Shown: positions 7,552 to 57,524 of the stretch, one piece after another
Numbering within the stretch: the stretch's first letter is position 1
Layout: each line of letters begins with the position of its first letter
DNA from: Dehalococcoidales bacterium
GTDB lineage: Bacteria; Chloroflexota; Dehalococcoidia; Dehalococcoidales; UBA5760
Length of the DNA stretch: 64,000 nucleotides
NCBI GenBank assembly: GCA_028716225.1
Contig: JAQUQE010000005.1
Location: forward strand, 65,017-129,016
Direction of reading: 5' to 3'
Notes under the pieces: generated by a model
What the model was told of the DNA's origin: nothing
The model's input: only the letters and a program-made list of their open reading frames with translations
Databases searched by the model: none
Position numbers and translations under genes: made by a program

Positions 7552-8522
7552 AGAAGCCCAATATTCCCCTTTACTTCCCTGATGGTCTCCCGGGCAATAA
7601 TCCGAGCCCGGGCGGCACCGTCAGCCAGCAATTCATTGATATACTTAGGTTTACCAGCCAGCTCTGCCCGCTTTTCCCGGAATGACCTGAGGGTATCGTT
7701 AATCTCCCCCGCCAGGTTCTTCTTGCAGTCAACACAGCCGATTCCGGCGGAGCGACACTGCGCGGCCAGGTCATCCTGCTGGAACGGGTTGAAATACCCG
7801 TGAAGCCGGAAAATATTACATATTTCGGGGTGTCCCGGATCACTACGATAGCGCCGTGCCGGATCGGTCACCGCTTCCATTACCCGGGCCGCCGTCTCCT
7901 CCTCAGAGAGAGCCAGTTCAATATCGTTGCCGATCTGTTTACTCATCTTATCTTTACCATCCAGCCCGAGTACCATGGGAAAGGTGGTAAGTTTAGCTTC
8001 AGGCTCAGGGAAGGTATCGCCGAAGAGATTATTGAAGCGACGGACAATCTCCCTGGCCAGCTCCAGGTGGGGCAGCTGGTCCTCACCCACGGGGACAGCT
8101 TCAGCCTTATAGAGCACAATATCGGATGTCATCAAGACGGGATAGCCGACCAGACCGTAGTTGACATTCTGCGGCTGCAGCTTGACCTTTTCCTTAAAGG
8201 TGGGTACTCTGAGCAGCCAGCTCAAGGGAGTAACCATGCTGAGTAGGGTATGCAGCTCGGTAACCTCAGGTACATGAGACTGAACAAAAAGGATGCTCTT
8301 CCTGGGATCGAGACCGGCCGCCAGCCAGTCCAGCATCATCTCACGGATATTCCACTGCAGGGAGTTGGTGTCCTCCAGCGTGGTCAAGGCATGGATATCA
8401 ACAATACAATAGACACAATCATATTCTTCCTGAAGGTTAACGTAATTCTGTATCGCACCCAGGTAATTACCCAGGTGCTGCCTTCCGGTCGGACGGGCCC
8501 CGGAAAAAACACGCTTCTTCAT
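7548..8522 (-). CDS. trpS: Tryptophan-tRNA ligase
   Basis: Class I motifs HLGNY (HIGH-type) and KMSKQ (KMSKS-type); 324 aa. Confidence 0.92.
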   Translation of the reverse strand: MKKRVFSGARPTGRQHLGNYLGAIQNYVNLQEEYDCVYCIVDIHALTTLEDTNSLQWNIREMMLDWLAAGLDPRKSILFVQSHVPEVTELHTLLSMVTPLSWLLRVPTFKEKVKLQPQNVNYGLVGYPVLMTSDIVLYKAEAVPVGEDQLPHLELAREIVRRFNNLFGDTFPEPEAKLTTFPMVLGLDGKDKMSKQIGNDIELALSEEETAARVMEAVTDPARRYRSDPGHPEICNIFRLHGYFNPFQQDDLAAQCRSAGIGCVDCKKNLAGEINDTLRSFREKRAELAGKPKYINELLADGAARARIIARETIREVKGNIGLL

Positions 8523-15199: not shown

Positions 15200-18040
15200 A
15201 TGCATAGAGTCGAGGTCCGTTTGAAAAAACACCAGCCTGACGCCAGGGGTCTGGGGCTGGTCAAGGACGTCCATGACCTGGGCATAACCTCGGTCTCCTA
15301 TGTCCGTGTGGCTGACATCTACTGGCTGGACGCCGAGCTTGCCCAGGACCAGCTGGAGCTTATCTGCTCCCGTTTACTCGCCGACCCGGTGACTCAGGAA
15401 TACTGGTATGGAGAGTCCCTCCACCTCGAGGGCGAGATTGGTCCTAATCAGCACAGCATTGAGGTCGCCTACAACGCCGGGGTTACCGACCCGATTGAGG
15501 CTACCATCCGCAAAGCGCTCAACGACCTGGGGGTAACCGGGGTCAGGGCAATTAAGACCGCCCGAAGATACCTGATCGACGGGCGGCTGGACATTTCACA
15601 GCTAGAGGCTATCAGCAGCAAGCTGCTGGTAAACCCGATTATTCAGCACACAGTCAGCGATGAGCCATCAGGGTTTCCGGAAAACCCCCGCTACCGATTC
15701 GCCCTGAAAGAGATAGAACTGAACCAGGCGGTACAGCAGTTCGGCTTTAGCGACGATGAGCTTAAGGCCATCACCGCCTACTTCCTCAAGCAAGGGCGTA
15801 ACCCCACCGATGCCGAGATGGAGACCCTGGCTCAGACCTGGTCCGAGCACTGTGTCCATAAGACATTCAAGGCCAGAATAAGGCTGGGCGAGGAGACCAT
15901 AGATAACCTGATTAAGAATACTATTATCAAGGCAACCAGGGAGCTGGAGAAACCATGGTGCCTCTCCGTTTTCAGCGATAATGCCGGGGTGATTGATTTC
16001 GACGGCCGCCGGGCGCTGTGCTTCAAGGTAGAGACCCATAATCACCCGTCGGCAATCGAACCATACGGAGGCGCTGCGACCGGGATCGGCGGAGTAGTCC
16101 GCGACCCGCTCGGCACCGGACTGGGCGCCAGGCCGATATTAAACACGGACGTTTTCTGCTTCGCTCCCCCCGATTTCCCTTACGAAAAGCTGCCCCAGGG
16201 CGTCCTTCATCCACGGCGCATCTTCAAGGGTGTTCGTGCCGGTGTAGCCGACTACGGCAACCGTCTGGGGATACCCACCCTTAATGGCGCGGTGCTTTTC
16301 GACGAACGCTATGTTGCCAACCCTCTGGTATACTGCGGCACGCTGGGGATTATGCCCCGGGAGTACTCCCATAGGGGCCAGCAACAGCCCGGTGATCTGG
16401 TGGTTGTGGTCGGCGGCAGGACGGGACGTGACGGCATACACGGGGTAACCTTTGCCTCGGAACAGCTTACCCAGGAATCCAGCGCCACCTCCTTAAGCGC
16501 CGTCCAGATCGGCAACCCCATCGTAGAGAAAAAGGTTATCGACACCCTGCTTCAAGCCAGAGACCGACATCTGTACTCTCGGGTAACCGACTGCGGGGGC
16601 GGCGGACTTTCCTCTGCGATAGGCGAGATGGGAGCCGACACCGGAGTAAAGGTTTACCTGGACAAGGTACCCTTGAAATACGCCGGACTCTCTTACTCCG
16701 AAATCTGGATATCAGAGTCGCAGGAGCGGATGTTATTGGCGGTCCCGCCGGAGTGTATCGAAGAGCTGATGGCCATTTTCGCAAGCGAAGATGTCGAGGC
16801 AGTAATTATTGGTGAGTTTACCGATGACCACAGGCTCCAGCTCTTCTACCAGGGGAATCTGGTATGCGATCTTGAAATGGAATTCCTCCACCAGGGCATC
16901 CCCCAGGTTGAGCGGGTAGCAGACTGGCAGCAGCCGTCACATGCCGAGCCTGATTTTGACTGTCCCCAGGACCTGGGTGAAGCACTGATTAAGATTCTCG
17001 GTGCTTGGAATGTCTGCAGCAAGGAATGGGTAATTCGCCAGTATGACCATGAGGTACAGGGGGCCAACGTTCTCAAACCCCTGGTGGGCAAGGACAATGA
17101 CGGCCCGGGTGATGCCGCGATGATCCGGCCGATACTGGATTCGGACAAGGGTGCCATCGTCTCCTGCGGGATAAACCCGAGGTACGGGGAAATAGACCCC
17201 TACTGGATGGCAGCCTCAGCTATCGACGAAGCCTTACGTCAGATTATCTCCGTGGGGGGCAACCTGTCCCGGGTAGCCCTGCTGGATAACTTCTGCTGGG
17301 GTAATGTCCAGCAACCGGATATCCTCGGCGCCCTGGTCAGAGCAGCCCAGGCCTGCTATGATATGGCCGTCGTCTACGAGACCCCCTTCATCTCCGGGAA
17401 GGACAGCCTCTATAACGAGTTTGAAGATGAGGGTAAGGTTATCTCTATTCCCCACACCCTGCTCATCTCGGCAATCGGCGTGATGGACGATGTTAACCGG
17501 GCAGTATCAATGGACTTCAAAAAACCGGGCAACCTGATTTACATGGTCGGCACCACCTGGAACGAGATGGGTGGCTCGGAATACTTGAGGCTCTATAATC
17601 TTACCGGAAACAACGTGCCCCGGGTAAGACCGCATCAGGCGAAATGGCTGATGGAGCGGCTCGCCACAGCCACCGCAAAAGGACTGGTCCGTGCCTGCCA
17701 CGACTGTAGTGAAGGCGGCATCGGAGTAGCCGTTGCCGAGATGGCGTTTGCCGGAGGGCTGGGCGCACTGGTCCACCTGAAGCCTGTGCCCCTGGGTGAG
17801 CCGGTGGATCGGGACGATTTCATCCTATTCTCGGAATCAAACAGCCGGTTTCTGGTCGAGGTAGCACCCGAGGATGAAGAGCAGTTTATCGAGGTTATGG
17901 AGGAGGGCGTCAACCTGGCCTCTATCGGTCAGGTTACCGACTCTAAGACTCTGGAGATATACGGCCTGGATGGTAAACCGGTTCTTGAGCAGAAAATCAG
18001 CGAACTCAAGGAGGCCTGGCAACAACCGATCCGGTGGTAG
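15200..18040 (+). CDS. purL: Phosphoribosylformylglycinamidine synthase subunit PurL with two fused N-terminal PurS-like repeats
   Basis: 946 aa. Residues about 1-160 form two PurS-like repeats (VEVRLKK...DARG...LLADPVTQEY, then IEVAYNAGVTDPIEATIRK...LLVNPIIQH). They are followed by the PurL core (ETHNHPSAIEPYGGAATG, two AIR-synthase-like halves). Confidence 0.9.
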   Translation: MHRVEVRLKKHQPDARGLGLVKDVHDLGITSVSYVRVADIYWLDAELAQDQLELICSRLLADPVTQEYWYGESLHLEGEIGPNQHSIEVAYNAGVTDPIEATIRKALNDLGVTGVRAIKTARRYLIDGRLDISQLEAISSKLLVNPIIQHTVSDEPSGFPENPRYRFALKEIELNQAVQQFGFSDDELKAITAYFLKQGRNPTDAEMETLAQTWSEHCVHKTFKARIRLGEETIDNLIKNTIIKATRELEKPWCLSVFSDNAGVIDFDGRRALCFKVETHNHPSAIEPYGGAATGIGGVVRDPLGTGLGARPILNTDVFCFAPPDFPYEKLPQGVLHPRRIFKGVRAGVADYGNRLGIPTLNGAVLFDERYVANPLVYCGTLGIMPREYSHRGQQQPGDLVVVVGGRTGRDGIHGVTFASEQLTQESSATSLSAVQIGNPIVEKKVIDTLLQARDRHLYSRVTDCGGGGLSSAIGEMGADTGVKVYLDKVPLKYAGLSYSEIWISESQERMLLAVPPECIEELMAIFASEDVEAVIIGEFTDDHRLQLFYQGNLVCDLEMEFLHQGIPQVERVADWQQPSHAEPDFDCPQDLGEALIKILGAWNVCSKEWVIRQYDHEVQGANVLKPLVGKDNDGPGDAAMIRPILDSDKGAIVSCGINPRYGEIDPYWMAASAIDEALRQIISVGGNLSRVALLDNFCWGNVQQPDILGALVRAAQACYDMAVVYETPFISGKDSLYNEFEDEGKVISIPHTLLISAIGVMDDVNRAVSMDFKKPGNLIYMVGTTWNEMGGSEYLRLYNLTGNNVPRVRPHQAKWLMERLATATAKGLVRACHDCSEGGIGVAVAEMAFAGGLGALVHLKPVPLGEPVDRDDFILFSESNSRFLVEVAPEDEEQFIEVMEEGVNLASIGQVTDSKTLEIYGLDGKPVLEQKISELKEAWQQPIRW

Positions 18041-18046
18041 CAGCAA

Positions 18047-18814
18047 ATGACTAAGGTAAGAACGTTGATACTACGTGGCCCCGGAACCAACTGCGATGCT
18101 GAAACGGCCTTCGCCTTTCAGCGGGCGGGGGCTAATGTAACCTCGGCCCATATCAATCAGCTAATCCGCCGTGAAGTACCGCTTTCCGACTACCAGATAT
18201 TTGTTATCCCCGGCGGCTTTACCTACGGTGACGATATCAGTGCCGGCAAGGTGCTGGCCAATGAGCTTAAACTAAAACTGGGGCAGGATATCCACAGTTT
18301 TATCGATAGTGGGGGGTTGATACTCGGTATCTGTAACGGTTTTCAGGTTCTGGTTAAGGCCGGTTTTTTGCCCGGTGGAGACGGCAGAGAGCAGCCGATA
18401 ACCCTGACCGCCAACGATTCCGGCAGGTTCGAGTGCCGCTGGGTATACCTAAAGGTGAATGAGAATAGCCCCTGCGTTTTCACCGAAGATATTGACCGTA
18501 TGTACCTGCCGGTGGCTAACGGAGAAGGTAAGGTCGTCACCAGCGGAAAAGCACTGCCGGATTCGAGCATAGTTCTTACCTACAGCGATGAATACGGAAA
18601 CAACAACCCCGGATATCCCGACGACCCCAGCGGCTCCGAAGGACATATCGCCGGCATCTGCGACGCATCAGGACGCATCTTTGCCCTGATGCCACACCCC
18701 GAACGCCACATTCGCGGTACCCAGCATCCGCGCTGGACCAGAGAGGGAGCCAGGAAAGACGGGGACGGCTTTCCTATCTTCATCAACGCCGTCAAGTGGG
18801 CCAGGGGGATATAG
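18047..18814 (+). CDS. purQ: Phosphoribosylformylglycinamidine synthase glutaminase subunit
   Basis: Class I glutamine amidotransferase: GICNGFQ (nucleophile Cys) and MPHPER. Directly downstream of purL. Confidence 0.9.
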   Translation: MTKVRTLILRGPGTNCDAETAFAFQRAGANVTSAHINQLIRREVPLSDYQIFVIPGGFTYGDDISAGKVLANELKLKLGQDIHSFIDSGGLILGICNGFQVLVKAGFLPGGDGREQPITLTANDSGRFECRWVYLKVNENSPCVFTEDIDRMYLPVANGEGKVVTSGKALPDSSIVLTYSDEYGNNNPGYPDDPSGSEGHIAGICDASGRIFALMPHPERHIRGTQHPRWTREGARKDGDGFPIFINAVKWARGI

Positions 18815-26291: not shown

Positions 26292-27683
26292 ATGGACAAG
26301 GAGTTTCGTCACCTGCCCGGAGTGGACAAGCTAACCTCCAACGAGCGCTTGAGGCAGCTCGGGGAGGAGCTTTCCCACACGTCCTTTATGGAGTTGATAC
26401 GCAACCACCTTGAGCAAACCCGGCTGGATATCGCTGCCGGTAGCCCCTGCCCTTCTCTTGACGATATAGTAGAAGCTATTGTCGCCCGGGGCTGCGCCAT
26501 GACAAAGCCGGGGCTGCGCCCGGTGGTCAACGCTACCGGCATCATACTTCACACCAACCTGGGCCGTGCTCCTCTCAGCGAGGAGACTGCCGCCGCGATG
26601 AACACGGTCGCCAGCACCTACTCTAACCTGGAGTTCGACCTGGACAGCGGCCGGCGGGGGTCGCGCAACAGCCACATCGAGCAGTCGCTGTGCCGGCTCA
26701 CCGGAGCCGAGGCGGCACTGGTGGTAAACAATAATACCTCAGCGGTGCTGCTCGCTCTCAGTGCGCTGACCAGAAGGAAAGAGGTGCTCGTTTCCCGCGG
26801 CCAGGCAGTACAGATCGGCGGCGGCTTTCGCATCCCCGACGTAATGCGCCAGAGCGGGGCCAGGCTGGTCGAGGTGGGCACCACCAACTGCACCTATGCT
26901 GTCGATTATGAACAGGCAATCAACCCGCGGACAGCGGCGCTGATGCGAATCCACCTGAGCAACTTCAGGATGATGGGCTTCACCCATTCGGTCACTCTCG
27001 AGGAACTGGTAGCGCTGGGCAAAGACCACAACCTCCCCGTACTCGATGACCTCGGCAGCGGATGTCTGCTGGATACCACCCAGTTCGGTCTTGACCCGGA
27101 GCCAACGGTACAGCAGAGCATTGCCGCTGGTGTCGACCTGGTCTTCTTCTCTGCTGATAAGCTCCTCGGTGGTCCTCAAGCCGGCATCGTCACCGGTCGG
27201 AAAGAGCTGATAGAAAAATTGAAGAAACACCCGCTGGCGCGTGCGGTACGGATCGATAAGATAGGACTGGCCGGTCTGGCGGCCACCCTGGTTCACTACC
27301 TGAAAGGTGAAGCGATAACCAAGATCCCGGTCTGGCGTATGATTGCCGCTCCTCTGGACGGAATTGAGCAGCGGGCCGTAACCTGGGCTGGACCACTCAA
27401 GAGACTGGCCGGGGTGATCGCCGGAGAAACGATGGTCGGAGGCGGCAGTCTGCCCGGGGCCACTCTACCGACCAGGCTGGTTGCTATCGGAGAAGAGGGA
27501 GGTAAAAGTAAGCGCAATATGGCGCAAGTCTTAAGCCAGCGGCTGCGCCAGCGAGAGATACCGGTCATCGGGCGAATTAGCGAAAATCTCCTCTTGCTCG
27601 ACCCCCGCTCCGTACTTCCCGGAGAAGACAGGATTGTGCTCAAAGCCCTGCAAGATGCCGCTGCCAGCCTTAAGGACAGGTGA
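26292..27683 (+). CDS. selA: L-seryl-tRNA(Sec) selenium transferase
   Basis: 463 aa with a SelA-like N-terminus (LPGVDKL...), [13 protein letters not shown], and the PLP-lysine region [13 protein letters not shown]. Confidence 0.9.
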
Positions 27684-38757: not shown

Positions 38758-41226
38758 TCACCAGGCAGGAGTAAGTTTGCCGGTCGTTTCCTGCCAGTAT
38801 GGCAACCAGCAAAGCGCCAGAAGTTGAACTGAGATGTTTGACTTGGTGGGGCGTATTGAGATTTGCTCCAGTCTTTCCGCAAGAGGATCCATTTTCGCTG
38901 CCAGTTGGTCTGTATCGGCTTTGAAATCAGCCTCGAGCTGTTGCAGTCTTTGCTTGATAGACTCAACTGTGTCCTTCGCCCGGCCGATATCCTGAGACGC
39001 TTTCCTGGAGCGGCTTACTCCGCTCATAGCAGACTTAGCTCCGCTCAGCGAACCGGCGCTGAAAACTTTCCTGCCCATGAATCCTCCCAAGAGAGTCGTT
39101 CCAAAGGATAGCGCCGTCTGTATTTTCTGGTGTTTCGCCTGGTCCTTCTCACGCTCAACGGCGGCCTGGGCACGGCGCATCCTCTCCTCCAACGTAGCGA
39201 TTTTACCGGCATACTTTTGCCGCAGTTTTTCAGTAGCTTCGTCCCGTTTTTCTCGGGCATACTGCTGTAACCTTACCCTGAATTCACTCTCGGACTCGTC
39301 AACATTGGAAAACTGTTTGAAACCGGGACTTTTCCACAAATCCAGCTTCTGATTCCGGTAAAGCCAGCCCGAGAATTCCTTCTGCCAGTATTTATAGCTG
39401 TCGGCACTGGTGGCGATTTTCGGTAGATTACCATACCGAGCCGGCTCCCTTGGTGACGGCTCAAAATCATTCACGTCAAGATCACTCTCGACAGCGCTAT
39501 CCCAGTTGACGGCAACAGGGCCTTCAGTAAAGGGGACTCTGTAAACCACGTCCTTGATGAAATTTACCCCGGTTTTTGTATTGCTGAAATGTATCTTACC
39601 GGCTCCGATAAGTTCCGGTTGGTAAAAAAGCCCTTGTCCGGCCGGCTGGCTGCTCCTGAAAGGAACGAAATACTGGTCTATTCTGGGCGGTAGAACTGGT
39701 CGCACTTCTCTGACCCCGGTAGTATCACTACCTACCACTGTTGGTACCGGTTGAGTTAGACCCGAGGTATCCGTATCGGAGACACCCGCCTTAGATGAGG
39801 CAGTGAATAGAGTCCGGATCGGGTCAACGAGCCCCTTGATCTGATTCCGTGTTAGCGGACCGCGCAGGTATGACATTGCCCAACGGGTTTCAAACACCAG
39901 TGGTACGTCGTCATGAACGTTATTCATCAAGAACACCCGGCTACCCAAGCCGGCCAGAGTCTGTTCCATAGCCTGACGGTTCCATTTCATGCCGCTGGTT
40001 GCAGCTACCCCTTCCAGACCTTCCAGTACCCGTGATTTGTCCCGTTCGGTCTGTAGCCTACCGATGAACCAGGTTCCGGTGTTAGATAAACCCTTGTAGT
40101 CGAGATCGACCGGATTCTGGGTGGCCAGTACTATACCTACCCCAAAGGCTCGTGCCTGCTTTAGCAGGGTCAGTAATGGCGTTTTCGATGGCGGATTAGC
40201 TACCGGCGGGAAGAATCCGAAAATCTCGTCCATATAGACGATGGATCTGAGACTGGTAGTACCGGATTGGGTACGCATCCAGCCCAGTATTTGATTGAGT
40301 AGCAGGGAAACGAAAAACATCCGTTCGGCATCATTTAAGTGAGCGATAGAGAAAACTGCGATCTTAGGTTTACCTTCGGGAGTATACAATATTGAATTGA
40401 TGTCTAGAGATTCACCCTCAAGCCAGGTATGAAAACCGGGGGCAGCCAACAGATTGTTCAAGGCTAGTGCCAGCTCAAACCTTTCTTTAGCAGGATAGAA
40501 AGAATCCAGATCCATCACCCCGATCCTGTTAACGGGCGGACTCTGGATCTGTCGGATCAAATCTGCGATATCCATATCACGCCGGTCTTGCCAGGCTCTA
40601 TTCAACAGAGTGGAGATGAGGATATGTTCACGGCTCCTTATCGGGTCGGCTTCAATACCAATAATCCCGAGCAGACTGGTGGCCGTGATACTAATGCGCT
40701 CTCTGAACAATTCCTCGTCCTCGCGAATTGCCTGAGGTGGAGCGGCAAACGACTTCATGATGGATACCGGAATGCCGGCACTGCTGCCCGGGGTATAGAT
40801 CACAGCGCTAATCGACTGACGCAGCCTCCTGATGCGCTCTCCACTCTGTCCCCAGGAAGCAAGACCATTCTTCCATAGGTCAGCCTGTTTTCTGGCATAT
40901 TCTTCATTAGACAGGCCCTTCTTGCGAGCATCTTCCTGATTAACCCAGGGCAGGAAATCCTCGGTTCTTAAGTCCGGAAAGGTCAACAGCAGATTGGTGA
41001 GGTCGCCTTTGGGATCAATGGCTATCGCCGGAATGCCATCCATGCCAGCCTCTTCCAAAAGCGAGATACAGAGACCCGTCTTACCGCTGCCGGTCATGCC
41101 GACACAGACAGCGTGGGTAACCAGGTCCTTGGAATCATAAAGGAACAGCCCGTCCCCGGGCTTCTTTTCTGCCAGATTGTAGGGCCTTCCCAGGTAAAAA
41201 ACGCCTAGCTTTTCATAATCTTCCAT
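38758..41226 (-). CDS. HerA/FtsK-like P-loop ATPase (DUF87-type) with a C-terminal coiled coil
   Basis: Walker A GMTGSGKTG, Walker B SIVYMDEIF, and LATQNPVDLDYKGLSNTGTWFIGRLQT. The C-terminal ~200 aa are Lys/Glu/Gln-rich heptad-like sequence. 822 aa. Confidence 0.75.
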   Translation of the reverse strand: MEDYEKLGVFYLGRPYNLAEKKPGDGLFLYDSKDLVTHAVCVGMTGSGKTGLCISLLEEAGMDGIPAIAIDPKGDLTNLLLTFPDLRTEDFLPWVNQEDARKKGLSNEEYARKQADLWKNGLASWGQSGERIRRLRQSISAVIYTPGSSAGIPVSIMKSFAAPPQAIREDEELFRERISITATSLLGIIGIEADPIRSREHILISTLLNRAWQDRRDMDIADLIRQIQSPPVNRIGVMDLDSFYPAKERFELALALNNLLAAPGFHTWLEGESLDINSILYTPEGKPKIAVFSIAHLNDAERMFFVSLLLNQILGWMRTQSGTTSLRSIVYMDEIFGFFPPVANPPSKTPLLTLLKQARAFGVGIVLATQNPVDLDYKGLSNTGTWFIGRLQTERDKSRVLEGLEGVAATSGMKWNRQAMEQTLAGLGSRVFLMNNVHDDVPLVFETRWAMSYLRGPLTRNQIKGLVDPIRTLFTASSKAGVSDTDTSGLTQPVPTVVGSDTTGVREVRPVLPPRIDQYFVPFRSSQPAGQGLFYQPELIGAGKIHFSNTKTGVNFIKDVVYRVPFTEGPVAVNWDSAVESDLDVNDFEPSPREPARYGNLPKIATSADSYKYWQKEFSGWLYRNQKLDLWKSPGFKQFSNVDESESEFRVRLQQYAREKRDEATEKLRQKYAGKIATLEERMRRAQAAVEREKDQAKHQKIQTALSFGTTLLGGFMGRKVFSAGSLSGAKSAMSGVSRSRKASQDIGRAKDTVESIKQRLQQLEADFKADTDQLAAKMDPLAERLEQISIRPTKSNISVQLLALCWLPYWQETTGKLTPAW

Positions 41227-50383: not shown

Positions 50384-51163
50384 CTATCTGGCCACGTACC
50401 CACCGTCTACGACATACTCCGATCCGGTAACCCATCTGGACTCATCGGAAGCAAGATACAAACTCGCGTAGGCAATATCAATCGGTTCGCCGATATGACC
50501 CAGCGGCGTCGCTTCGGTAAACAGCTTGTTGTACTGGTTGAACGATATCCCGTAGTCTTTAGCCTCTTTGTCGGTAAGCTCGGTGTGGATGAGACCGGGA
50601 TGCACGGAATTGACCCGGATCTTGTATCCGGCCTCAGCACAGGATAGGGCCACCGATTTGGTCATTGCCCTCACCGCCCCTTTAGAGGCACAATAGGCAG
50701 GCAACCCGGCTTCACCTATTATGGCATCGATAGACGATATATTCACTATTGAGCACGGTTCCCCGTTCTTCTTCATAACCTCAATGCCATATTTACAGCC
50801 TAAGAAAACCCCGGTCGCATTGATATTCATTATCCAGTTCCATTCATCGAGGGAGGTCTCTTCTATCGTTTTCGCCAGTGAAACACCGGCATTGTTCACC
50901 AGGACATTAAGCTTGCCATATTTTTTGACAACCTCACCGAGCACCTTTTTCCAGTCATCCTCGCTGGTGGTATCGAGTATGAGAAAGATAGCCTCTCCGC
51001 CTTGCTTTTTGATACTCTCCGCTAGCGCTGTTCCCTCATCTACCTTCTTCCTGGTAGTAACTACGACCTTAGCCCCCTCCTTAGCAAACAACTCAGAATG
51101 CCCACCGCCTATGCCGCAAGCACCTCCGGTGATCAGGGCTACTTTACCATCCAATCTCCCCAT
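50384..51163 (-). CDS. Short-chain dehydrogenase/reductase
   Basis: TGGACGIG (TGxxxGxG), NNAG, and YCASK (YxxxK). Confidence 0.88.
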   Translation of the reverse strand: MGRLDGKVALITGGACGIGGGHSELFAKEGAKVVVTTRKKVDEGTALAESIKKQGGEAIFLILDTTSEDDWKKVLGEVVKKYGKLNVLVNNAGVSLAKTIEETSLDEWNWIMNINATGVFLGCKYGIEVMKKNGEPCSIVNISSIDAIIGEAGLPAYCASKGAVRAMTKSVALSCAEAGYKIRVNSVHPGLIHTELTDKEAKDYGISFNQYNKLFTEATPLGHIGEPIDIAYASLYLASDESRWVTGSEYVVDGGYVAR

Positions 51164-51766: not shown

Positions 51767-53200
51767 ATGGCTGTATCTAGTTTTCACTATTTCACGATAC
51801 TTCGGGAGATCATAATGCGTCGGACGTTCGATAAATTCGCTTTCTTGCCTGACAATCCTCGGAATCTTAGGATTCTCAAAATTGTTGTCGCCGTCTCTCC
51901 GGCCCTGTTCGTTCTGCTTTTTGAGTTATTTAGACCATCAATACTCGAAGGGACTCGCTCCGCGATTGCATCCAGCCTATTTTTTACTCCAGTCGTAATC
52001 TTTGCTGTCTTCTTCTACATGGTTGTCTTCAGTCTCATTAAGAGGATTCAAGAGGAGAACCTACAACGCAACCGGGAACTGGGTATTATTAATGAGATCG
52101 CTTTGACGGTAAACGCATCCTTAGACCTGAACGTATTGCTGCCACGCACGATGGAGAAGCTAATTCAAGTGACCGAGGCTGATTCTGGCGAGTTGTTTTT
52201 AATTAATGAAAGAAGCCGTGAATTGTCGTACGAATTCTCTGTTGGGATTTCCGCAGAGGCATCCAAACCATACTCAAGTTCATTAGCGAATAATGATGGA
52301 CTGATCCATGAAGCAGCAAGATCGAATGAACCAATGATAATACAGGATATGGGGAATTACGATAGTGTGGTTACCCCAGCCCTATCGGTTTCCGGATTCC
52401 GCTCTGTGGCCGTAGTACCACTAAAGTCGAGAAGCGGTATCGTGGGCGTTTTGTGCATTCTTAGTCTCAAACCCAACCACTTCAAATTGGATGAGGCCGG
52501 TCTCTTCGCTAATATTGGTAGTCAAATAGCGGTGGCCATAGAGAACGCTCGCCTCTACGAAAAAGTACAAGGGATAGTCATTGTAGAGGAGAGGGAACGA
52601 ATTGCGAAGGAACTCCATGATGGGTTAGCACAGGTGCTAGGTTATGTAATTACCAAGAGTGAAGCAACGAGGCAAATTCTTAGCAAAATGACTATGGCAA
52701 CTGACTATTTGGTTGAACTAGAGAAAGTCGCTCAGGATGTATATACCGACACGAGAGAGGATATTCTTGGTCTTCGAACCGCTGTTTCGGGCGACCGGGA
52801 TTTGGTATCCGCACTCAGGGAGTATTTGACTCGCTTCAGCCAGATGCATGGTATCAGGACCGTGTTGGAGGTAGATGGCCAGACTATACCCCATCTATCT
52901 CCACAAGTCGAATTACAGACCATCCGCATCGTCCAGGAGGCATTGTCTAACATTAGAAAACACGCTGAACCTACCCGTGCGTTGGTGAGGTTGACGGCAA
53001 GCGATAACAATGTCACATTACTAATCGAAGACGACGGGAAGGGTTTCGACGTCAACGAACTTGGACATAGCGACTGCGCGAAATTCGGAATTCGGACAAT
53101 CAAAGAAAGGGCTGAGAGCATACACAGCAGGCTGGATATCGAATCTAAGCCCGGAAACGGAACTAAGGTAACGCTAAGCATACCACTAAATCTTCCTTAG
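51767..53200 (+). CDS. Sensor histidine kinase (TM, GAF, HisKA_3, HATPase)
   Basis: TM helices and a GAF-like region. H-box ERIAKELHDGLAQ and ATP-lid motifs EDDGKGF and FGIRTIKERA. The true start may be the internal ATG at 51815 (MRRTFDKF). Confidence 0.85.
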   Translation: MAVSSFHYFTILREIIMRRTFDKFAFLPDNPRNLRILKIVVAVSPALFVLLFELFRPSILEGTRSAIASSLFFTPVVIFAVFFYMVVFSLIKRIQEENLQRNRELGIINEIALTVNASLDLNVLLPRTMEKLIQVTEADSGELFLINERSRELSYEFSVGISAEASKPYSSSLANNDGLIHEAARSNEPMIIQDMGNYDSVVTPALSVSGFRSVAVVPLKSRSGIVGVLCILSLKPNHFKLDEAGLFANIGSQIAVAIENARLYEKVQGIVIVEERERIAKELHDGLAQVLGYVITKSEATRQILSKMTMATDYLVELEKVAQDVYTDTREDILGLRTAVSGDRDLVSALREYLTRFSQMHGIRTVLEVDGQTIPHLSPQVELQTIRIVQEALSNIRKHAEPTRALVRLTASDNNVTLLIEDDGKGFDVNELGHSDCAKFGIRTIKERAESIHSRLDIESKPGNGTKVTLSIPLNLP

Positions 53201-53223: not shown

Positions 53224-53895
53224 TTGAGGGTACTAATAGTTGACGATCATGCTCTGTTCAGAAGCGGACTAGCCAGTCTCCTGACCGCAAATGATATCGA
53301 GGTTGTTGGAGAGGCCAGTAACGGTCTGGAAGCCGTAGAAAAGACCCGCCAACTCAGGCCGGACATAGTACTGATGGATGTCAAAATGGCTGACTTTAAT
53401 GGCATCCAAGCCACACAGCTCATCAAGGCAGAAATGCCACAGACAAAAATTGTCATGGTTACGGCTTTTGAAGATGACGATGACTTGTTTGAAGCAATGA
53501 AAGGCGGCGCCGTTGGTTACATCCTCAAGAACATAGAAGCTGAAAAGTTCGTCAAATTTCTCTCGAATATCATGGAGGGTGATGTAGCAGTGTCACCATG
53601 GGTCGCTGATAAAATAGTCAAAGAGGCATTCCGCCAAAACGGAAGACTTAGATCATCACAGCCTGCCAATGATCTTACCAACCTTACTAACAAAGAAGCC
53701 GAGGTTCTCAAACTAGTTGCTACTGGAGCGACAAACAAGGAGATCGCTTCATCTCTTAATATTTCAGAAAACACGGTGAAATATCACCTGCGTAACATTA
53801 TGGAAAAACTCCACGTCAGGAATCGCGCTCAAATGGTAGCGCGTGCAGTAACCAGAGGCATAGTCCCGGGCAGCGCTGGCGGAAAAACTGACTAA
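53224..53895 (+). CDS. NarL/LuxR-family response regulator
   Basis: Receiver domain (VLIVDDH, DIVLMDVKM) and LuxR HTH (LTNKEAEVLKLVATGATNKEIASSLNISENTVKYHLRNI). Confidence 0.9.
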   Translation: MRVLIVDDHALFRSGLASLLTANDIEVVGEASNGLEAVEKTRQLRPDIVLMDVKMADFNGIQATQLIKAEMPQTKIVMVTAFEDDDDLFEAMKGGAVGYILKNIEAEKFVKFLSNIMEGDVAVSPWVADKIVKEAFRQNGRLRSSQPANDLTNLTNKEAEVLKLVATGATNKEIASSLNISENTVKYHLRNIMEKLHVRNRAQMVARAVTRGIVPGSAGGKTD

Positions 53896-53923
53896 ACTTC
53901 ATCACAAAAAAAGACATCCAAAA

Positions 53924-53949
53924 GGGTGGCTCTATAGCCACCCTTTTTT
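53924..53949 (+). terminator. Rho-independent terminator of the two-component operon
   Basis: GGGTGGC-TCTATA-GCCACCC followed by TTTTTT. Confidence 0.7.
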
Positions 53950-53986
53950 GTAGTAAGAAAACCACCCGGATGCATATTGTTCAGCC

Positions 53987-54024
53987 CATAGGAATAACAG
54001 AAAATAGACTGTGAGAGAACCGAC
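53987..54024 (+). repeat. Direct repeat copy 1 (38-bp perfect core)
   Basis: CATAGGAATAACAGAAAATAGACTGTGAGAGAACCGAC is identical to 55867..55904. Flanking similarity extends to about 53974..54034. Confidence 0.95.
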
Positions 54025-54588
54025 AAGATTATTTCCCAACTTGGTGTCGCGTGATTTCCGTGCGGAGTGGCGTCTGCGTGGATTGAGCTAATAAATGAGA
54101 GTAACAAGCCCAGCTAAAAGTAACTAGTAGTGTAGAGACAAATAAATAGGAGTGCTTTGCACCATAAATAATAAACCATAACTAATCGGAAGAAGAGGGT
54201 TATGATGGAGACTAGAGTGATAGATTGCAGTGAAAATTTATTGCATGTCATAGAATCTGTTGCACCATCGCTAAAACATACCTTTGGTGTGAAGAGGCGT
54301 AATAATACTTTCTTTATCAATACTTCTCATCCTAAGGACTCAACCTCTTCTCCTGCTAAGATTAAGCCAAGACCGTCCGCTCTCTTTGGTTATGTTGACT
54401 TAGATTAAGAAGATCTGTTTTTGGCTAAAACGGTTTACCATGTTTAAGAGAGATGGTTTGTTAGTTGTGGAACGGGGGTAGCAATGGCCTATATGTATCC
54501 TGGCTACCGACATTATAGATAAACTGGAAAGGCTACCCGAAGGTCATAGAATCGCATAATAAATGAGCAAAGGGAGGTATCGCTAGAG

Positions 54589-55770
54589 ATGAAAGTAGCT
54601 GTCATAGGAATAGGGCAATGTGGCTGCAATATTGCTGATGAGTTCTATAGCCTTAACCAATATGCAAAATCCCTACTTGGCAGGAGGCTGGAGATAGTAA
54701 CCGACACGCTGGCTGTTAATACCGACTCGAGTGACCTCAGAGGTTTCAAGCATATCCCGGGGAGGAACAGGATACTGGTGGGGGCTGGTAGAACCTTTGG
54801 ACACGGGGTTGGCAAAATTAATACCGAATCCGCCAGAATATTTGCTGATGAGCGTGCAGTACTGGCAGGAGAAATTTCTAGATCGAAAAAATTTTACGAG
54901 ACGGATGCGATAGTGGTTATAGGTAGCGCCGCAGGGGGTACAGGCTCCGGTGGTATCGGACAGACCGTGAAGGTTCTTAAGGAAAGACTGAATCGTCGTG
55001 TGAGTCGTAGTGTTATTGCTATAGTTGTTTTACCCTTTGCATATGAAGAGAGTGGAGTAGCATCTTATACTCTAACTAATACCGCCACTTGCCTGACTAC
55101 AGTGGATAGCTACGCCGATGTTACCTTTATCCTTGATAACGAGAAATTCAGCAAGGGTGCATCGGTCAGTATGGCTGAATCATATCAAGACATTAACCAA
55201 AAGATGGTCAGAAACTTCTACGACCTGTTTTGTGGTGGTGAGGAGAAAGGAGGCAAATACATAGGTGCCAAGGTGGCCGATGCCGGAGACATTGTGGCTT
55301 CCCTGACTGGTATATCTGTTATTGGTAGAGGTGAAGTGTCTCTGCCGGCTTTCCGCTTTAAAAAATATTCCTTAGATGAGGGAATACGCAAAGCAACCTC
55401 AATATCCACAGCTTTGAGTGAGGCACTCTGTAACTTGTCTACCAATATCAACCTGGAGGATGCCCGGAGGCTAATGGCTATACTTTGTGCCCCGAAGGAA
55501 TACATAACCCAGTCAGCCCTTCAAGAGATCTATCAGACCCTCCTGGATATTGCTCCTAAGGCAGAGATTAGGATTGGGGACTATCCTAGGAGACGAGGAG
55601 AAGTCTCCATTACTATTGTTGCCTCAGAGTTGGTTAGTATACCCAGGGTGGAAAGATTATACGAAGGTGCAAAGAAAACATTTGAAGCTCAGCAGGTAAT
55701 TGCGGGACAGACGATAAATCTGGTCAACGAACTGAGAGAAAAGGCGAAGGATATACCTAGATTAGCCTAG
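54589..55770 (+). CDS. Tubulin/FtsZ-superfamily GTPase, CetZ/tubulin-like
   Basis: GGGAGG RBS about 10 nt upstream. T1 loop GIGQCG, GHGVG, tubulin signature GSAAGGTGSGG, ILDNEKF, DINQKMVRNFYDLF, and the acidic loop AKVADAGDIVASL. 393 aa. Confidence 0.8.
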   Translation: MKVAVIGIGQCGCNIADEFYSLNQYAKSLLGRRLEIVTDTLAVNTDSSDLRGFKHIPGRNRILVGAGRTFGHGVGKINTESARIFADERAVLAGEISRSKKFYETDAIVVIGSAAGGTGSGGIGQTVKVLKERLNRRVSRSVIAIVVLPFAYEESGVASYTLTNTATCLTTVDSYADVTFILDNEKFSKGASVSMAESYQDINQKMVRNFYDLFCGGEEKGGKYIGAKVADAGDIVASLTGISVIGRGEVSLPAFRFKKYSLDEGIRKATSISTALSEALCNLSTNINLEDARRLMAILCAPKEYITQSALQEIYQTLLDIAPKAEIRIGDYPRRRGEVSITIVASELVSIPRVERLYEGAKKTFEAQQVIAGQTINLVNELREKAKDIPRLA

Positions 55771-55866
55771 GTTATTCTAGGGAAGAGAACCGTGGCGCAG
55801 ATTTAAAGTTTTATGTTGTAGTATAGCCACTGATTCGAGCTATAGGCCAGGTTATGTTGTTCAACG

Positions 55867-55904
55867 CATAGGAATAACAGAAAATAGACTGTGAGAGAAC
55901 CGAC
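55867..55904 (+). repeat. Direct repeat copy 2 (38-bp perfect core)
   Basis: Identical to 53987..54024. Lies 40 nt upstream of the ATG at 55944. Confidence 0.95.
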
Positions 55905-55943
55905 GAGAACATTTTTGGGAGTTCTTTGATCAGGAGATAGCGA

Positions 55944-56279
55944 ATGAAAGAAGAGTTCTTGGAACCTAAGTTATATAGTCAAGCCCCATCTGTATGTCTA
56001 AAACCTGGATGTGGTGGTAGAGTATTCATTCCTCATGAAGACGGCTGGCAATGCTTCAATTGCATGAAGATTATCTACAAGGCTAACGATAAGGTGAAAA
56101 AGAATGTTGCTATCAAACGCTATAGTCATAACAACCAGGAAGTAGATATGAGATTGAAGAATATAGTTAAACGTATGCTTTCCCCGGAATATAGACGTTC
56201 TTGTCAAATAGTGAGATGTATTGACAAAGGTTATAGCCACCAAGAAGCTTTAGCCAAGGTAGGAGCAATAGAAATCTAG
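55944..56279 (+). CDS. Zinc-ribbon protein, hypothetical
   Basis: 111 aa. CLKPGCGG...CFNC (CxxC-N-CxxC) zinc-ribbon-like N-terminus and a basic C-terminal half. AGGAGA RBS upstream. Confidence 0.5.
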   Translation: MKEEFLEPKLYSQAPSVCLKPGCGGRVFIPHEDGWQCFNCMKIIYKANDKVKKNVAIKRYSHNNQEVDMRLKNIVKRMLSPEYRRSCQIVRCIDKGYSHQEALAKVGAIEI

Positions 56280-56373
56280 GGTAAAGATGGTTTGTTAAGT
56301 AACCATTGATAGCCTAATTGATAAAAGGGGCAGGATTATTAATCTCGGGAGAAAATACGAAAGGAGGTAATAC

Positions 56374-56511
56374 ATGCAAGCATATTGTATGAAATGCCGA
56401 TCGAAGAAGGAAATGAAGGATCCCAAGAGCATTACCATGAAGAATGGTAAACCTGCTGCCCAAGGGATTTGTCCTAGTTGCGGCACCAAGATGTTTAGAA
56501 TTGGTAAGTAA
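56374..56511 (+). CDS. DUF5679-like zinc-ribbon mini-protein (45 aa, below the track cutoff)
   Basis: ATG at 56374 after AAGGAGG. Reads MQAYCMKCRSKKEMKDPKSITMKNGKPAAQGICPSCGTKMFRIGK, which matches my recollection of the DUF5679 pattern (CxKC...MKN...G.CP.CGTKMFRI). Confidence 0.6.
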   Translation: MQAYCMKCRSKKEMKDPKSITMKNGKPAAQGICPSCGTKMFRIGK

Positions 56512-56536
56512 TAGCTTACTTAGAAAATTTGATAAT

Positions 56537-56568
56537 AGAGCTGGATATCTGATGGGATATCCAGCTCT
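56537..56568 (+). terminator. Rho-independent terminator
   Basis: AGAGCTGGATATC-TGATGG-GATATCCAGCTCT followed by ATTTGTGT. Confidence 0.6.
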
Positions 56569-56675
56569 ATTTGTGTCCATCACACGAAATAAGCAAATGT
56601 ATTTCTTACATATGTAATAAGAGTCCCATTCATTTTGTTGAAAATGCTAACATATCCCTTGGACTATCTTGAATT

Positions 56676-56924
56676 ATGTGGATTGAGCCAAACAAGCATA
56701 TAACGAGCGTCGATGATATGTTCCGCTATGCATCTACTATTAATGGTTATCAGTATGCCAAAGACAAATGGAACATCGATTGCTCAGACTTAGTTAATAG
56801 TCGTCTTGATGAGTATTTTAAGACAGGAAAATGGCGAGGATCATTTGAAGAGCAAGGTGCTGCCTGTTCTTTGAGCAGAGAAGATACCACCATTTTTAAG
56901 AATATCCTACTGGCAGAAACCTGA
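56676..56924 (+). CDS. Hypothetical small protein
   Basis: 82-aa ORF in the AT-rich islet; no family recognised; no clear RBS seen. Confidence 0.3.
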   Translation: MWIEPNKHITSVDDMFRYASTINGYQYAKDKWNIDCSDLVNSRLDEYFKTGKWRGSFEEQGAACSLSREDTTIFKNILLAET

Positions 56925-57054
56925 AGTCTATTCAGGAACTTAACCACACCATTATAAAACTATGGAAATAGAGCCCTGATATTCAGGGAACTGCGGAGAC
57001 AAACGGTCGTACTTAAATCATAGTGGTGGGGAATCTGACTAAGTATTATTGGAT

Positions 57055-57524
57055 TTATGGATTATGCGGTATGCCTTTTTCATGGTTAACGCAAAGGTCT
57101 TCCTGCGCCAGAAGCTTCTCCAAGCGGGTATGCAACTCTTTATACATGGCGACAGCTCTACGTCCTTCATCGATCAGCGTAGCGTGTCCCCCCCCCTGCT
57201 CCCGCCGACAATCTTCTCGACCAAAGGCGAAGGAGCCAACCGGTTCATCGATGCTATCCATAGCCAGGCGTTGCGATAGGTCAGTCCCATGGAGCGGGCG
57301 GCGGCGGCAATTGACCCCATCTCGTTCAACCGTTCCAGAAGTATCACCCTACCCCAACCCAAGTACAGTTCACCGTCTTTCTCCACCCAGATACGGCCTC
57401 TTGTATGATAGCCCTCATCCGGGTGCCGAGATGGTTTCTTTCCCGGCCTGGCTGTCTTCGGCCTGTCCATACGTTCGTCCCCGAAACAAAATATGTCAAG
57501 CGGTGAGTTCATAGTCGTTGACAC
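57055..57524 (-). pseudogene. ModE-N-terminal-like (molybdate-type HTH) regulator interrupted by a -1 frameshift in a G9 tract
   Basis: Track ORFs 57174..57524 (...GSIAAAARSMGLTYRNAWLWIASMNRLAPSPLVEKIVGGSRGG) and 57055..57261 (...GGGHATLIDEGRRAVAMYKELHTRL) are the two halves of one ModE-like HTH domain. They join at a run of nine C (plus strand 57188-57196). One extra G would restore ...VGGSRGGGHATLIDEG.... Confidence 0.7.

Follow-up and report, generated by a model that had tools for sequence, protein, structure and literature searches.

In Haloferax, CetZ1 controls the transition from plate-shaped to rod-shaped cells, and this rod-shape development, the only known function of CetZ, comes from an S-layer organism without peptidoglycan. 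FtsZ carries a C-terminal peptide, D-[IL]-P-x-F-L (DIPAFL in Escherichia coli), which binds FtsA, ZipA or SepF. The CetZ-focused literature calls the family archaea-specific (PMC9856176, PMC11621097; Brown & Duggin 2023). The GTPase-blocking E218A substitution in CetZ1 leads to hyperstable polymers and blocks rod formation, and the terminal LESLF tail of the same protein is essential for function (bioRxiv 10.1101/2024.04.08.588506). Among bacteria, the Dehalococcoidales were reported to be without dcw and peptidoglycan genes, to keep mraZ-mraW-ftsA-ftsZ, and to possess an S-layer-type wall resembling that of archaea (PMC10608941). Here, we analysed a stretch of 64,000 nucleotides from a Dehalococcoidales bacterium (contig JAQUQE010000005.1, positions 65,017 to 129,016), hereafter the window, which contains a gene for a CetZ-type GTPase of 393 amino acids (aa).

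This is not a new kind of protein. Santana-Molina, Saz-Navarro & Devos 2023 (PMC9871819) devoted one sentence to CetZ-like proteins of Dehalococcoidia, which almost certainly represent the group of the window gene, and some members of the family are already labelled 'tubulin-like protein CetZ' in IMG. New in the present analysis are the extent and the coherence of the bacterial clade, which comprises hundreds of clusters and appears largely monophyletic, its A and B types with tandem arrays in the core genome, a conserved tail peptide, a linkage to two-component genes, and the outlier status of the window copy in a conserved locus.

A CetZ-type GTPase in a bacterial chromosome

The gene and its main features are as follows.

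54589..55770, plus strand: cetZ-like gene of type A, 'IPRLA-tail' subclade, 393 aa, ATG start (open reading frame, profile, PDB and model evidence)
54572..54577, plus strand: Shine-Dalgarno sequence GGGAGG, 11 nt before the ATG (direct sequence reading)
54525..54552, plus strand: candidate sigma-70-like promoter TGGAAA-16-TAGAAT, weak, by consensus match only
54607..54630, plus strand: T1 loop G7-N14 (GIGQCGCN), GxGQCGxN being invariant across the family
54934..54951, plus strand: T4 signature G116-G121 (GGTGSG), invariant
55279..55290, plus strand: T7 loop D231-A-G-D234, invariant, aligned to CetZ1 D215...E218
55747..55767, plus strand: C-terminal tail peptide K387-DIPRLA-393, family consensus [DN][ILV]PxL[DEA]
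Domain layout of the product: GTPase domain at aa 2-188, CetZ_C at aa 194-362, a long C-terminal helix at aa 352-385, and the terminal peptide

Because sequence, profile and fold concur, the assignment of this protein to the CetZ type of tubulin/FtsZ-superfamily GTPases, and not to FtsZ, TubZ or tubulin, is confirmed. An earlier reading of the sequence only had described a 393-aa open reading frame (ORF) with a good ribosome-binding site and the ordered motifs of the superfamily. Both descriptions hold, the translation containing MKVAVIGIGQCGCNIADEF, TFGHGVG, GSAAGGTGSGG, ILDNEKF, DINQKMVRNFYDLF and AKVADAGDIVASL. The promoter scan detected three sites against 5.2 expected in shuffled sequences, an absence of enrichment that leaves the candidate promoter without significance.

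Profile searches gave scores above the gathering thresholds for both halves of the protein. The N-terminal half matched Pfam Tubulin (PF00091; 74.7 bits against a cut-off of 33, E=1.5e-20, aa 2-188) and includes the glycine-rich T4 signature of the superfamily (AGGTGSG, aa 115-121), and the C-terminal half matched CetZ_C (PF21011; 56.5 bits against 21.6, E=3e-15) over aa 194-362, corresponding to positions 3-179 of the 180 in the profile. Tubulin_2 (PF13809) gave 29.6 bits against a cut-off of 27, with aa 106-174 aligned to profile positions 162-233 of 356, which is the shared T4 region lying under the stronger Tubulin match. The FtsZ equivalog TIGR00065 of NCBIfam failed, with 45 bits against a cut-off of 295.2, and neither FtsZ_C nor Tubulin_C was matched in Pfam. 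Phmmer comparisons with the PDB revealed full-length similarity to H. volcanii CetZ1 (4B46, E=8e-34), CetZ2 (4B45, 1.4e-20) and Methanosaeta thermophila CetZ (3ZID, 4e-16), and only marginal matches to BtubA/B, tubulins and TubZ (E=0.04-0.13; BtubA 0.04, TubZ 4xcq 0.13).

The AlphaFold2 (AF2) model, built on 54 homologues, reached a mean predicted local distance difference test score (pLDDT) of 85.7 and a predicted template modelling score (pTM) of 0.88, and displays the two-domain fold of the superfamily with its core H7 helix. When this model was searched with Foldseek, CetZ1 came first (template modelling score, TM, 0.92; root-mean-square deviation 2.2 A; E=1.5e-30), followed by CetZ2 and 3ZID, and FtsZ structures ranked below all three (best FtsZ E=1.8e-22). 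Of 1092 PDB matches at E<=0.001, the best 50 were all CetZ or FtsZ chains. The sequence-only reading, which judged from colinearity that the protein fitted CetZ or tubulin better than canonical FtsZ or TubZ, was thus right on CetZ and on the exclusion of FtsZ and TubZ. Its tubulin option falls, with no Tubulin_C and with E values of about 0.04-0.1 for tubulins and Btub proteins. In the alignment, the long M-loop of CetZ1 (14-26 aa, with an amphipathic hydrophobic tip) is absent, the protein being gapped at the CetZ1 insertion LLSRLTGGDEP. The protein is not a CetZ1 orthologue.

The chromosome is bacterial, as had been proposed. RecG, bacterial-type SelA, SelB with winged-helix domains, a PurS-PurS-PurL fusion, ArgS and NrdJ are all encoded in the window, and an identical protein is on record in a Dehalococcoidales metagenome-assembled genome (MAG). 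With RecG, SelA/SelB, PurS-PurL and this MAG record, the host departs from the archaeal one by which the CetZ family is defined.

Conserved GTPase residues and C-terminal tail

The residues of the T1, T4, T6 and T7 loops are invariant in the 54 homologues. These comprise G7, G9, Q10, C11, G12 and N14 in T1, G71-H-G-x-G-K76, G116-GTGSG121 in T4, D183-N184, N203, D231-x-G-D234 in T7, and R328-x-GDYPR. In the phmmer alignment with the PDB, D234 is aligned with CetZ1 E218. This is the set of residues expected of a polymerising GTPase, and polymerisation of the protein is predicted to depend on GTP.

The C-terminal part consists of a charged helix of about 30 residues (H352-385 in the AF2 model) followed by the terminal [DN][ILV]PxL[DEA], in which P390 and L392 are invariant. 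This motif occurs throughout the 38-sequence bacterial clade described below, with looser versions in archaeal CetZs, and the earlier claim that no conserved C-terminal peptide was present was mistaken. The E. coli FtsZ sequence used for comparison, with its DIPAFL tail, was verified against the PDB. The invariant GTPase residues and the conserved tail point to a dynamic filament, driven by GTP and probably anchored by the tail.

A large and old family resident in Dehalococcoidia

Hundreds of homologues were found at 47-84% identity, all from Dehalococcoidia/Chloroflexota assemblies or from unlabelled metagenomes, and their sources include a Dehalogenimonas MAG and a closed Dehalococcoidia chromosome of 1.03 Mb. 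No named cultured isolate (Dehalococcoides, Dehalogenimonas) was present among the best 120 matches to the Dehalogenimonas MAG homologue, which is negative evidence only. Neighbour-joining (NJ) trees were computed with 100 sequences, E. coli FtsZ being taken as the outgroup to 81 full-length representatives at 50% identity, the CetZs of the three PDB entries and sequences from selected loci. The window protein falls in a 13-sequence clade (bootstrap 96-100%), itself nested in a 38-sequence clade (82-94% under four settings) that leaves CetZ1 and CetZ2 outside and whose named members are all Dehalococcoidia. The sister assemblage is archaeal and comprises Nitrososphaerales, Bathyarchaeia and haloarchaeal CetZ1/2, with the Thermococcus and Methanosaeta CetZs branching deeper. 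In these distance-based trees, the protein does not lie within the canonical CetZ1 or CetZ2 orthologous groups. A placement inside an already described bacterial family, which the sequence-only reading had named as a refutation, applies only by half: the Dehalococcoidia group is in print, in the single sentence cited above, but uncharacterised.

Two paralogue types, A (that of the window gene) and B, are about 40% identical to each other, and both keep every GTP loop and the T7 DAGD. Tandem arrays of two or three CetZ-like genes lie between eno/gap and dnaX-ybaB-recR at three places (L007, L024-L025 and L026-L027), with the order A-B or A-B-B' (L007:9998-12418, L024:6001-8418, L026:6001-11625). 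Since all GTP and T7 residues are retained in both types, the tandem paralogues were rejected as an active/inactive pair of the alpha/beta-tubulin kind. Judging from these residues, A and B may both be catalytically equipped, and could form co-polymers or divide functions between them.

The GC content of the genes follows that of the host locus (19 loci), so that any inter-domain transfer must have been ameliorated long ago. The family is thus large, old and resident in Dehalococcoidia, and is not a fresh archaeal import. The view of the gene as an unusual, horizontally acquired module, put forward from the sequence, keeps its low GC and its flanking repeats, both real, but not its rarity, given hundreds of members in the class, core chromosomal contexts and a recurrent synteny.

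Several observations concern the borders of the family. On a short contig (L010; CBFDBW010000414.1, 2954 bp) binned as Syntrophobacterales, a CetZ-like gene lies firmly inside the Dehalococcoidia clade; the label is probably a binning error rather than the sign of a second phylum carrying the family. An 'IPLLL-tail' subgroup of the bacterial clade (L034:6001-7155) has a degenerate T3 (SGGGLSR) and an arginine in place of the first T7 aspartate (VRTGDM), residues by which it could be a GTPase-impaired or capping variant. Sequences from Nitrososphaerales MAGs (P0152-P0154) and from a Bathyarchaeia MAG (P0160) group with the haloarchaeal CetZ1/2 assemblage, a placement that contrasts with the description of CetZ as confined to a subset of Euryarchaeota. 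Finally, in a distant subclade with CetZ_C (P0145/P0290; L016:8001-10305, L017:8001-10305, L018:8001-10296), the proteins have 418 aa and share about 34% identity with the window protein, and their gene is always followed by a conserved ORF of 324-327 aa without Pfam match, on contigs of up to 1.25 Mb where resolvases, IS605 OrfB/TnpB, IS66, group II intron reverse transcriptase and Uma2 genes are found. This may be a tubulin-like two-gene module borne by mobile elements.

A recurrent two-component neighbourhood

The genes and signals next to the cetZ-like gene are listed below.

51767..53200, plus strand: histidine kinase (GAF, HisKA_3, HATPase_c), with orthologues beside cetZ-like genes in L023 (61%) and L006 (54%)
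53224..53895, plus strand: NarL/LuxR-type response regulator (Response_reg and GerE), with orthologues beside cetZ-like genes in L023 (73%) and L006 (69%)
53920..53947, either strand: 12-bp GC-rich hairpin with flanking T/A runs, directly after the regulator gene (scan and sequence reading)
56374..56511, plus strand: DUF5679 zinc-ribbon mini-protein, 45 aa, whose L006 orthologue lies 124 bp downstream of the cetZ-like gene
50384..51163, minus strand: short-chain dehydrogenase (SDR), a type of gene also found upstream of cetZ-like genes in L005 and L028

No ftsA, ftsQ, mur or min gene was detected next to the cetZ-like gene by Pfam and neighbour annotation, in agreement with what had been read from the sequence. 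An orthologous kinase-regulator pair accompanies a cetZ-like gene in three lineages. The order and strand in L023 (GAF-HisKA_3 kinase, Response_reg-GerE regulator, CetZ-like) are those of the window, and in L006 the pair is the divergent neighbour of the CetZ-like gene. Six receiver-domain genes occur in 18 distinct contexts totalling 290 kb. Every one of them is no more than 2.5 kb away from a CetZ-like gene, and the remaining 185 kb contain none; with uniform placement, the probability is about 0.31^6 = 9e-4, or about 0.009 when the three orthologous loci are counted as one event. This recurrence of signalling genes as neighbours suggests that expression of the cetZ-like gene is conditional, under the GAF-kinase/NarL-type regulator pair. 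The two do not form an operon in the window because a strong hairpin and 694 bp stand between the regulator and the cetZ-like gene. The hairpin was called on the minus strand by the scan, and TTTTTT follows the palindrome on the plus strand too; it probably separates the transcription of the two genes.

The other neighbours were rejected as conserved partners. Identities of 34-44% leave the orthology of the SDR genes doubtful (38-44% for those near the cetZ-like genes of L005 and L028), and the DUF5679 gene comes closer than 1 kb to a cetZ-like gene in just two loci, the window and L006, and is a marker of synteny, not a general partner. These DUF5679 mini-proteins, of 45-50 aa and about 80% identical between distant lineages, occur in several copies (window 56374-56511; L006:7954-8094 and 8259-8411; L021:13079-13219).

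A putative scaffold of the envelope

From homology and host biology only, the reading that we favour, with some reserve, is that the CetZ-like protein acts as a scaffold of cell envelope or shape independently of division. In a Dehalococcoidales cell without peptidoglycan wall, S-layered and with ftsZ retained, a CetZ-like protein would be an additional tubulin-family protein in an envelope resembling that of Haloferax. Fold and residue conservation together suggest how it would work: GTP would bind in the N-terminal domain at the T1-T6 loops, subunits would polymerise head to tail, and the T7 loop (D231/D234) of one subunit would complete the GTPase site of the next, giving dynamic filaments. 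The charged helix of about 30 residues would present the invariant terminal peptide (DIPRLA in this protein), which may dock a partner, a membrane anchor or a neighbouring subunit, with the LESLF tail of CetZ1 and the C-terminal peptide of FtsZ as models. Associated with the envelope, such filaments would serve as a scaffold that shapes the cell or organises its surface in a bacterium with an S-layer-type wall and no peptidoglycan, alongside, and not in place of, the FtsA/FtsZ divisome reported to be retained in the order. As for its history, the gene would go back to a transfer that took place long ago between archaea and an ancestral member of the Dehalococcoidia, after which duplication gave rise to two or more paralogue types, and the window copy may have been swapped into its conserved locus from another Dehalococcoidales lineage.

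Several points weigh against this scaffold reading. Polymerisation, localisation and phenotype of bacterial CetZ-like proteins are all deduced, and the retention of ftsZ and ftsA and the loss of peptidoglycan genes come from a report at the level of the order, the analysis covering 64 kb of the present genome. The trees are distance-based, with a backbone support of 35-40% that does not fix the direction or the number of inter-domain transfers, and the 38 sequences of the bacterial clade include several metagenome proteins without a label. That no cultured isolate appeared among the close homologues indicates that the family is missing from part of the class, a point against a simple link with wall loss. 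In the window, the hairpin and the 694-bp gap make co-regulation with the two-component pair a matter of deduction, and no conserved structural partner was found near the gene in the fetched loci.

A more ambitious version of the scaffold reading is a true bacterial CetZ cytoskeleton, gained from archaea at about the period when the lineage gave up peptidoglycan for an S-layer envelope, in which diversified A and B types would co-operate in a signal-dependent remodelling of cell shape or surface controlled by the two-component system, in the manner of CetZ1 in Haloferax. We regard it as rather speculative. If true, it would be the first chromosomal tubulin-family shape system in bacteria other than FtsZ, and would imply a co-transfer of envelope and cytoskeleton between domains.

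Low GC, flanking repeats and a possible allele swap

The region around the gene differs in composition from the rest of the window and includes two direct repeats.

53974..54034, plus strand: direct repeat copy 1, 61 nt, 79 bp past the regulator stop
55854..55914, plus strand: direct repeat copy 2, 61 nt, 90% identical to the first with a 38-nt exact core, 84 bp past the cetZ-like stop

The GC content between 51.1 and 57.1 kb is 0.433, against 0.518 for the whole window and 0.552 for its first 30 kb, and the hand counts of the sequence-only reading were right (0.30 at 54121, 0.417 at 54601, 0.633 at 26761). Its AT-rich islet is therefore real, but it is only moderate and it includes the kinase-regulator pair that is conserved beside the gene in other lineages. 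Among the 48 ORFs of the window, the three lowest GC contents at third codon positions (GC3) are those of the kinase, the regulator and the cetZ-like gene, the last being the lowest (0.439, against a mean of 0.586 and a standard deviation of 0.065). The most AT-rich stretch of the window is 55771-57100, with a GC of 0.34-0.40.

The repeats do bracket the cetZ-like gene, as had been noticed, and the number of such pairs expected by chance is 0. Searches of the window, of 15 loci and of the metagenome collection gave no further copy. With no other copy and an RNA that folds no better than shuffled sequences, the repeat was rejected as a known mobile or structured element. Weaker similarity between the two copies reaches upstream of the 61 nt to a common TATAGCCAC element.

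Low GC, repeats and an outlying gene tree may together mark an allele swap within the class, between Dehalococcoidales lineages. A resident type-A gene in a kinase-regulator-[cetZ]-DUF5679 locus would have been replaced by a diverged allele from another lineage of the order, for example by Campbell-type or homeologous recombination, leaving the 61-nt repeats and widened spacers. This event, which modifies the scaffold reading and is compatible with it, is a tentative possibility. Compared pairwise across the window, L023 and L006, the flanking kinases (61/54/52% identity) and regulators (73/69/70%) are about equally distant. The CetZ-like protein of the window, by contrast, shares 53% and 50% identity with its counterparts in L023 and L006, which are 71% identical to each other. 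The window gene instead clusters with its 'IPRLA-tail' mates (L001-L005, L019 and L021; 76-84% identity), which are spread over seven different contexts, all without the orthologous kinase-regulator pair. The spacers on the two sides of the gene are widened, to 694 bp as compared with 148 bp and to 604 bp as compared with 124 bp, and one copy of the repeat lies in each. However, the same figures would result if the subclade had evolved faster and an unrelated duplication had occurred locally, orthologous flanks are available in only three loci, and no donor-like spacer sequence was found in the 15 loci or the metagenome collection.

Alternative roles and origins

The gene could also encode an accessory division protein, its filament joining FtsZ at the septum through an FtsZ-like tail (D-I-P-x-L) that binds FtsA or SepF. 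The tail [DN][ILV]PxL[DEA] does resemble the D-[IL]-P-x-F-L of FtsZ, Dehalococcoidales keep ftsA-ftsZ without genes for wall synthesis (PMC10608941), and two FtsZ proteins are at work in archaea that have no wall of the peptidoglycan type (cited in PMC9856176). Yet both sequence and fold bring the protein nearer to CetZ than to any FtsZ, and TIGR00065 gives 45 bits where 295.2 are needed; ftsZ, ftsA and mraZ are never adjacent to the gene (35 loci), and no ftsZ occurs in the 496 kb of fetched DNA. A copy number varying from 1 to 3 and the lack of cultured isolates among the best 120 homologues argue against an essential role in division, and we find this explanation unlikely.

A motor for DNA segregation or for a mobile element, in the manner of TubZ, with the repeats marking a mobile cassette, appears highly improbable. 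Such a role would agree with the 61-nt direct repeats around the gene, its GC3, the lowest in the window, the dispersal of its closest relatives (76-84% identity) over seven contexts, and the P0145/P0290 subclade, whose members have a conserved partner of 327 aa and are surrounded by resolvases, IS605/IS66 elements and a group II intron. Unlike that distant subclade, though, the clade of the window gene does not sit among mobile elements: no TubR-like gene, centromere-like repeat array, integrase or transposase was detected near the gene, its neighbours have no PHROG match, and related genes occupy core chromosomal contexts and the conserved kinase-regulator locus. The repeat, moreover, exists in two copies only with no match elsewhere, and TubZ is matched at E=0.13.

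A recent acquisition from archaea, or an assembly or binning chimera, which the GC of 0.433 at 51.1-57.1 kb against 0.552 in the first 30 kb and the archaea-specific status given to CetZ (PMC9856176) might have evoked, is refuted for practical purposes, since the closest homologues (47-84%) all derive from independent Dehalococcoidia/Chloroflexota assemblies, the best archaeal relatives are only about 30% identical, bacterial genes lie on both sides on the same contig, GC tracks the host, and the recurrence of the kinase-regulator-cetZ-DUF5679 synteny in the independent assemblies L023 and L006 excludes the archaeal chimera that the sequence-only reading had raised.

Other features of the window

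Rfam and tRNA scans of the 64 kb gave nothing, and there is consequently no tRNA-type integration site. Three orphan ORFs near the cetZ-like gene (54202-54408, 55944-56279 and 56676-56924) had no Pfam, NCBIfam or PHROG match. The second of them (111 aa) has an N-terminal CxxC...CxxC zinc-ribbon-like motif and the third encodes 82 aa, and the related loci contain no homologue of either. Directly 3' of the DUF5679 gene lies a perfect inverted repeat of 16 bp (56534-56571). Farther away, a 946-aa ORF (15200-18040) consists of two PurS-like domains fused to PurL, an unusual architecture for a formylglycinamidine ribonucleotide synthase, and is directly followed by another ORF (18047-18814). An 822-aa ORF on the minus strand (38758-41226) had no Pfam or NCBIfam match at E<=1e-5.

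Comparison with known systems

Dehalococcoidia matter for organohalide respiration and subsurface carbon cycling, and their cell biology is almost unexplored. Because they share an S-layer envelope without a wall, by secondary loss, with the organism in which CetZ function is known, they offer an independent test of CetZ as a general means of shaping cells without a sacculus. The gene is thus a good entry point into the biology of wall-less bacterial cells, with the tail peptide and the recurrent two-component neighbours as concrete experimental handles.

TubZ, BtubAB, eukaryotic tubulin and FtsZl1 belong to the same superfamily, and the GQCG of T1 and the [SAG]GGTG[SA]G signature give the window protein a tubulin-like flavour. 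It differs from TubZ, BtubAB and tubulin by marginal E values (0.04-0.13), by the lack of Tubulin_C and by a context without plasmid or TubR, and its match to the FtsZl1 family (Tubulin_2; Makarova & Koonin 2010) covers only 69 residues around T4. With bacterial FtsZ it shares the superfamily fold (TM of about 0.8), the GTP loops, the acidic residue of T7 and a terminal peptide reminiscent of D-[IL]-P-x-hydrophobic-L. In contrast to FtsZ, its T1 reads GQCG instead of GGGGxN, and it has neither an FtsZ_C match nor a dcw/ftsA neighbourhood; a separate, canonical ftsZ is reported in Dehalococcoidales besides the CetZ-like gene.

The closest system remains archaeal CetZ (4B46/4B45 and 3ZID; Duggin et al. 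2015), which has the same Tubulin plus CetZ_C architecture and provides the best matches in sequence and structure. The differences lie in the bacterial host, an identity of about 24-30%, a separate clade with 86-94% bootstrap in the distance trees, and the recurrent vicinity of two-component signalling genes. They also include the absence of the long amphipathic M-loop of CetZ1, a tail in PxL[DEA] where CetZ1 has LESLF, and a T1 reading GQCG, as in tubulin and Methanosaeta CetZ, rather than GQAG. Common to both are the GHGVG, GGTGSG, DN, T7 DxxD/E and RxGDYP motifs, a short conserved hydrophobic peptide at the end of a charged C-terminal tail, the occurrence of multiple paralogues per genome, and hosts that have no peptidoglycan and are enclosed in an S-layer.

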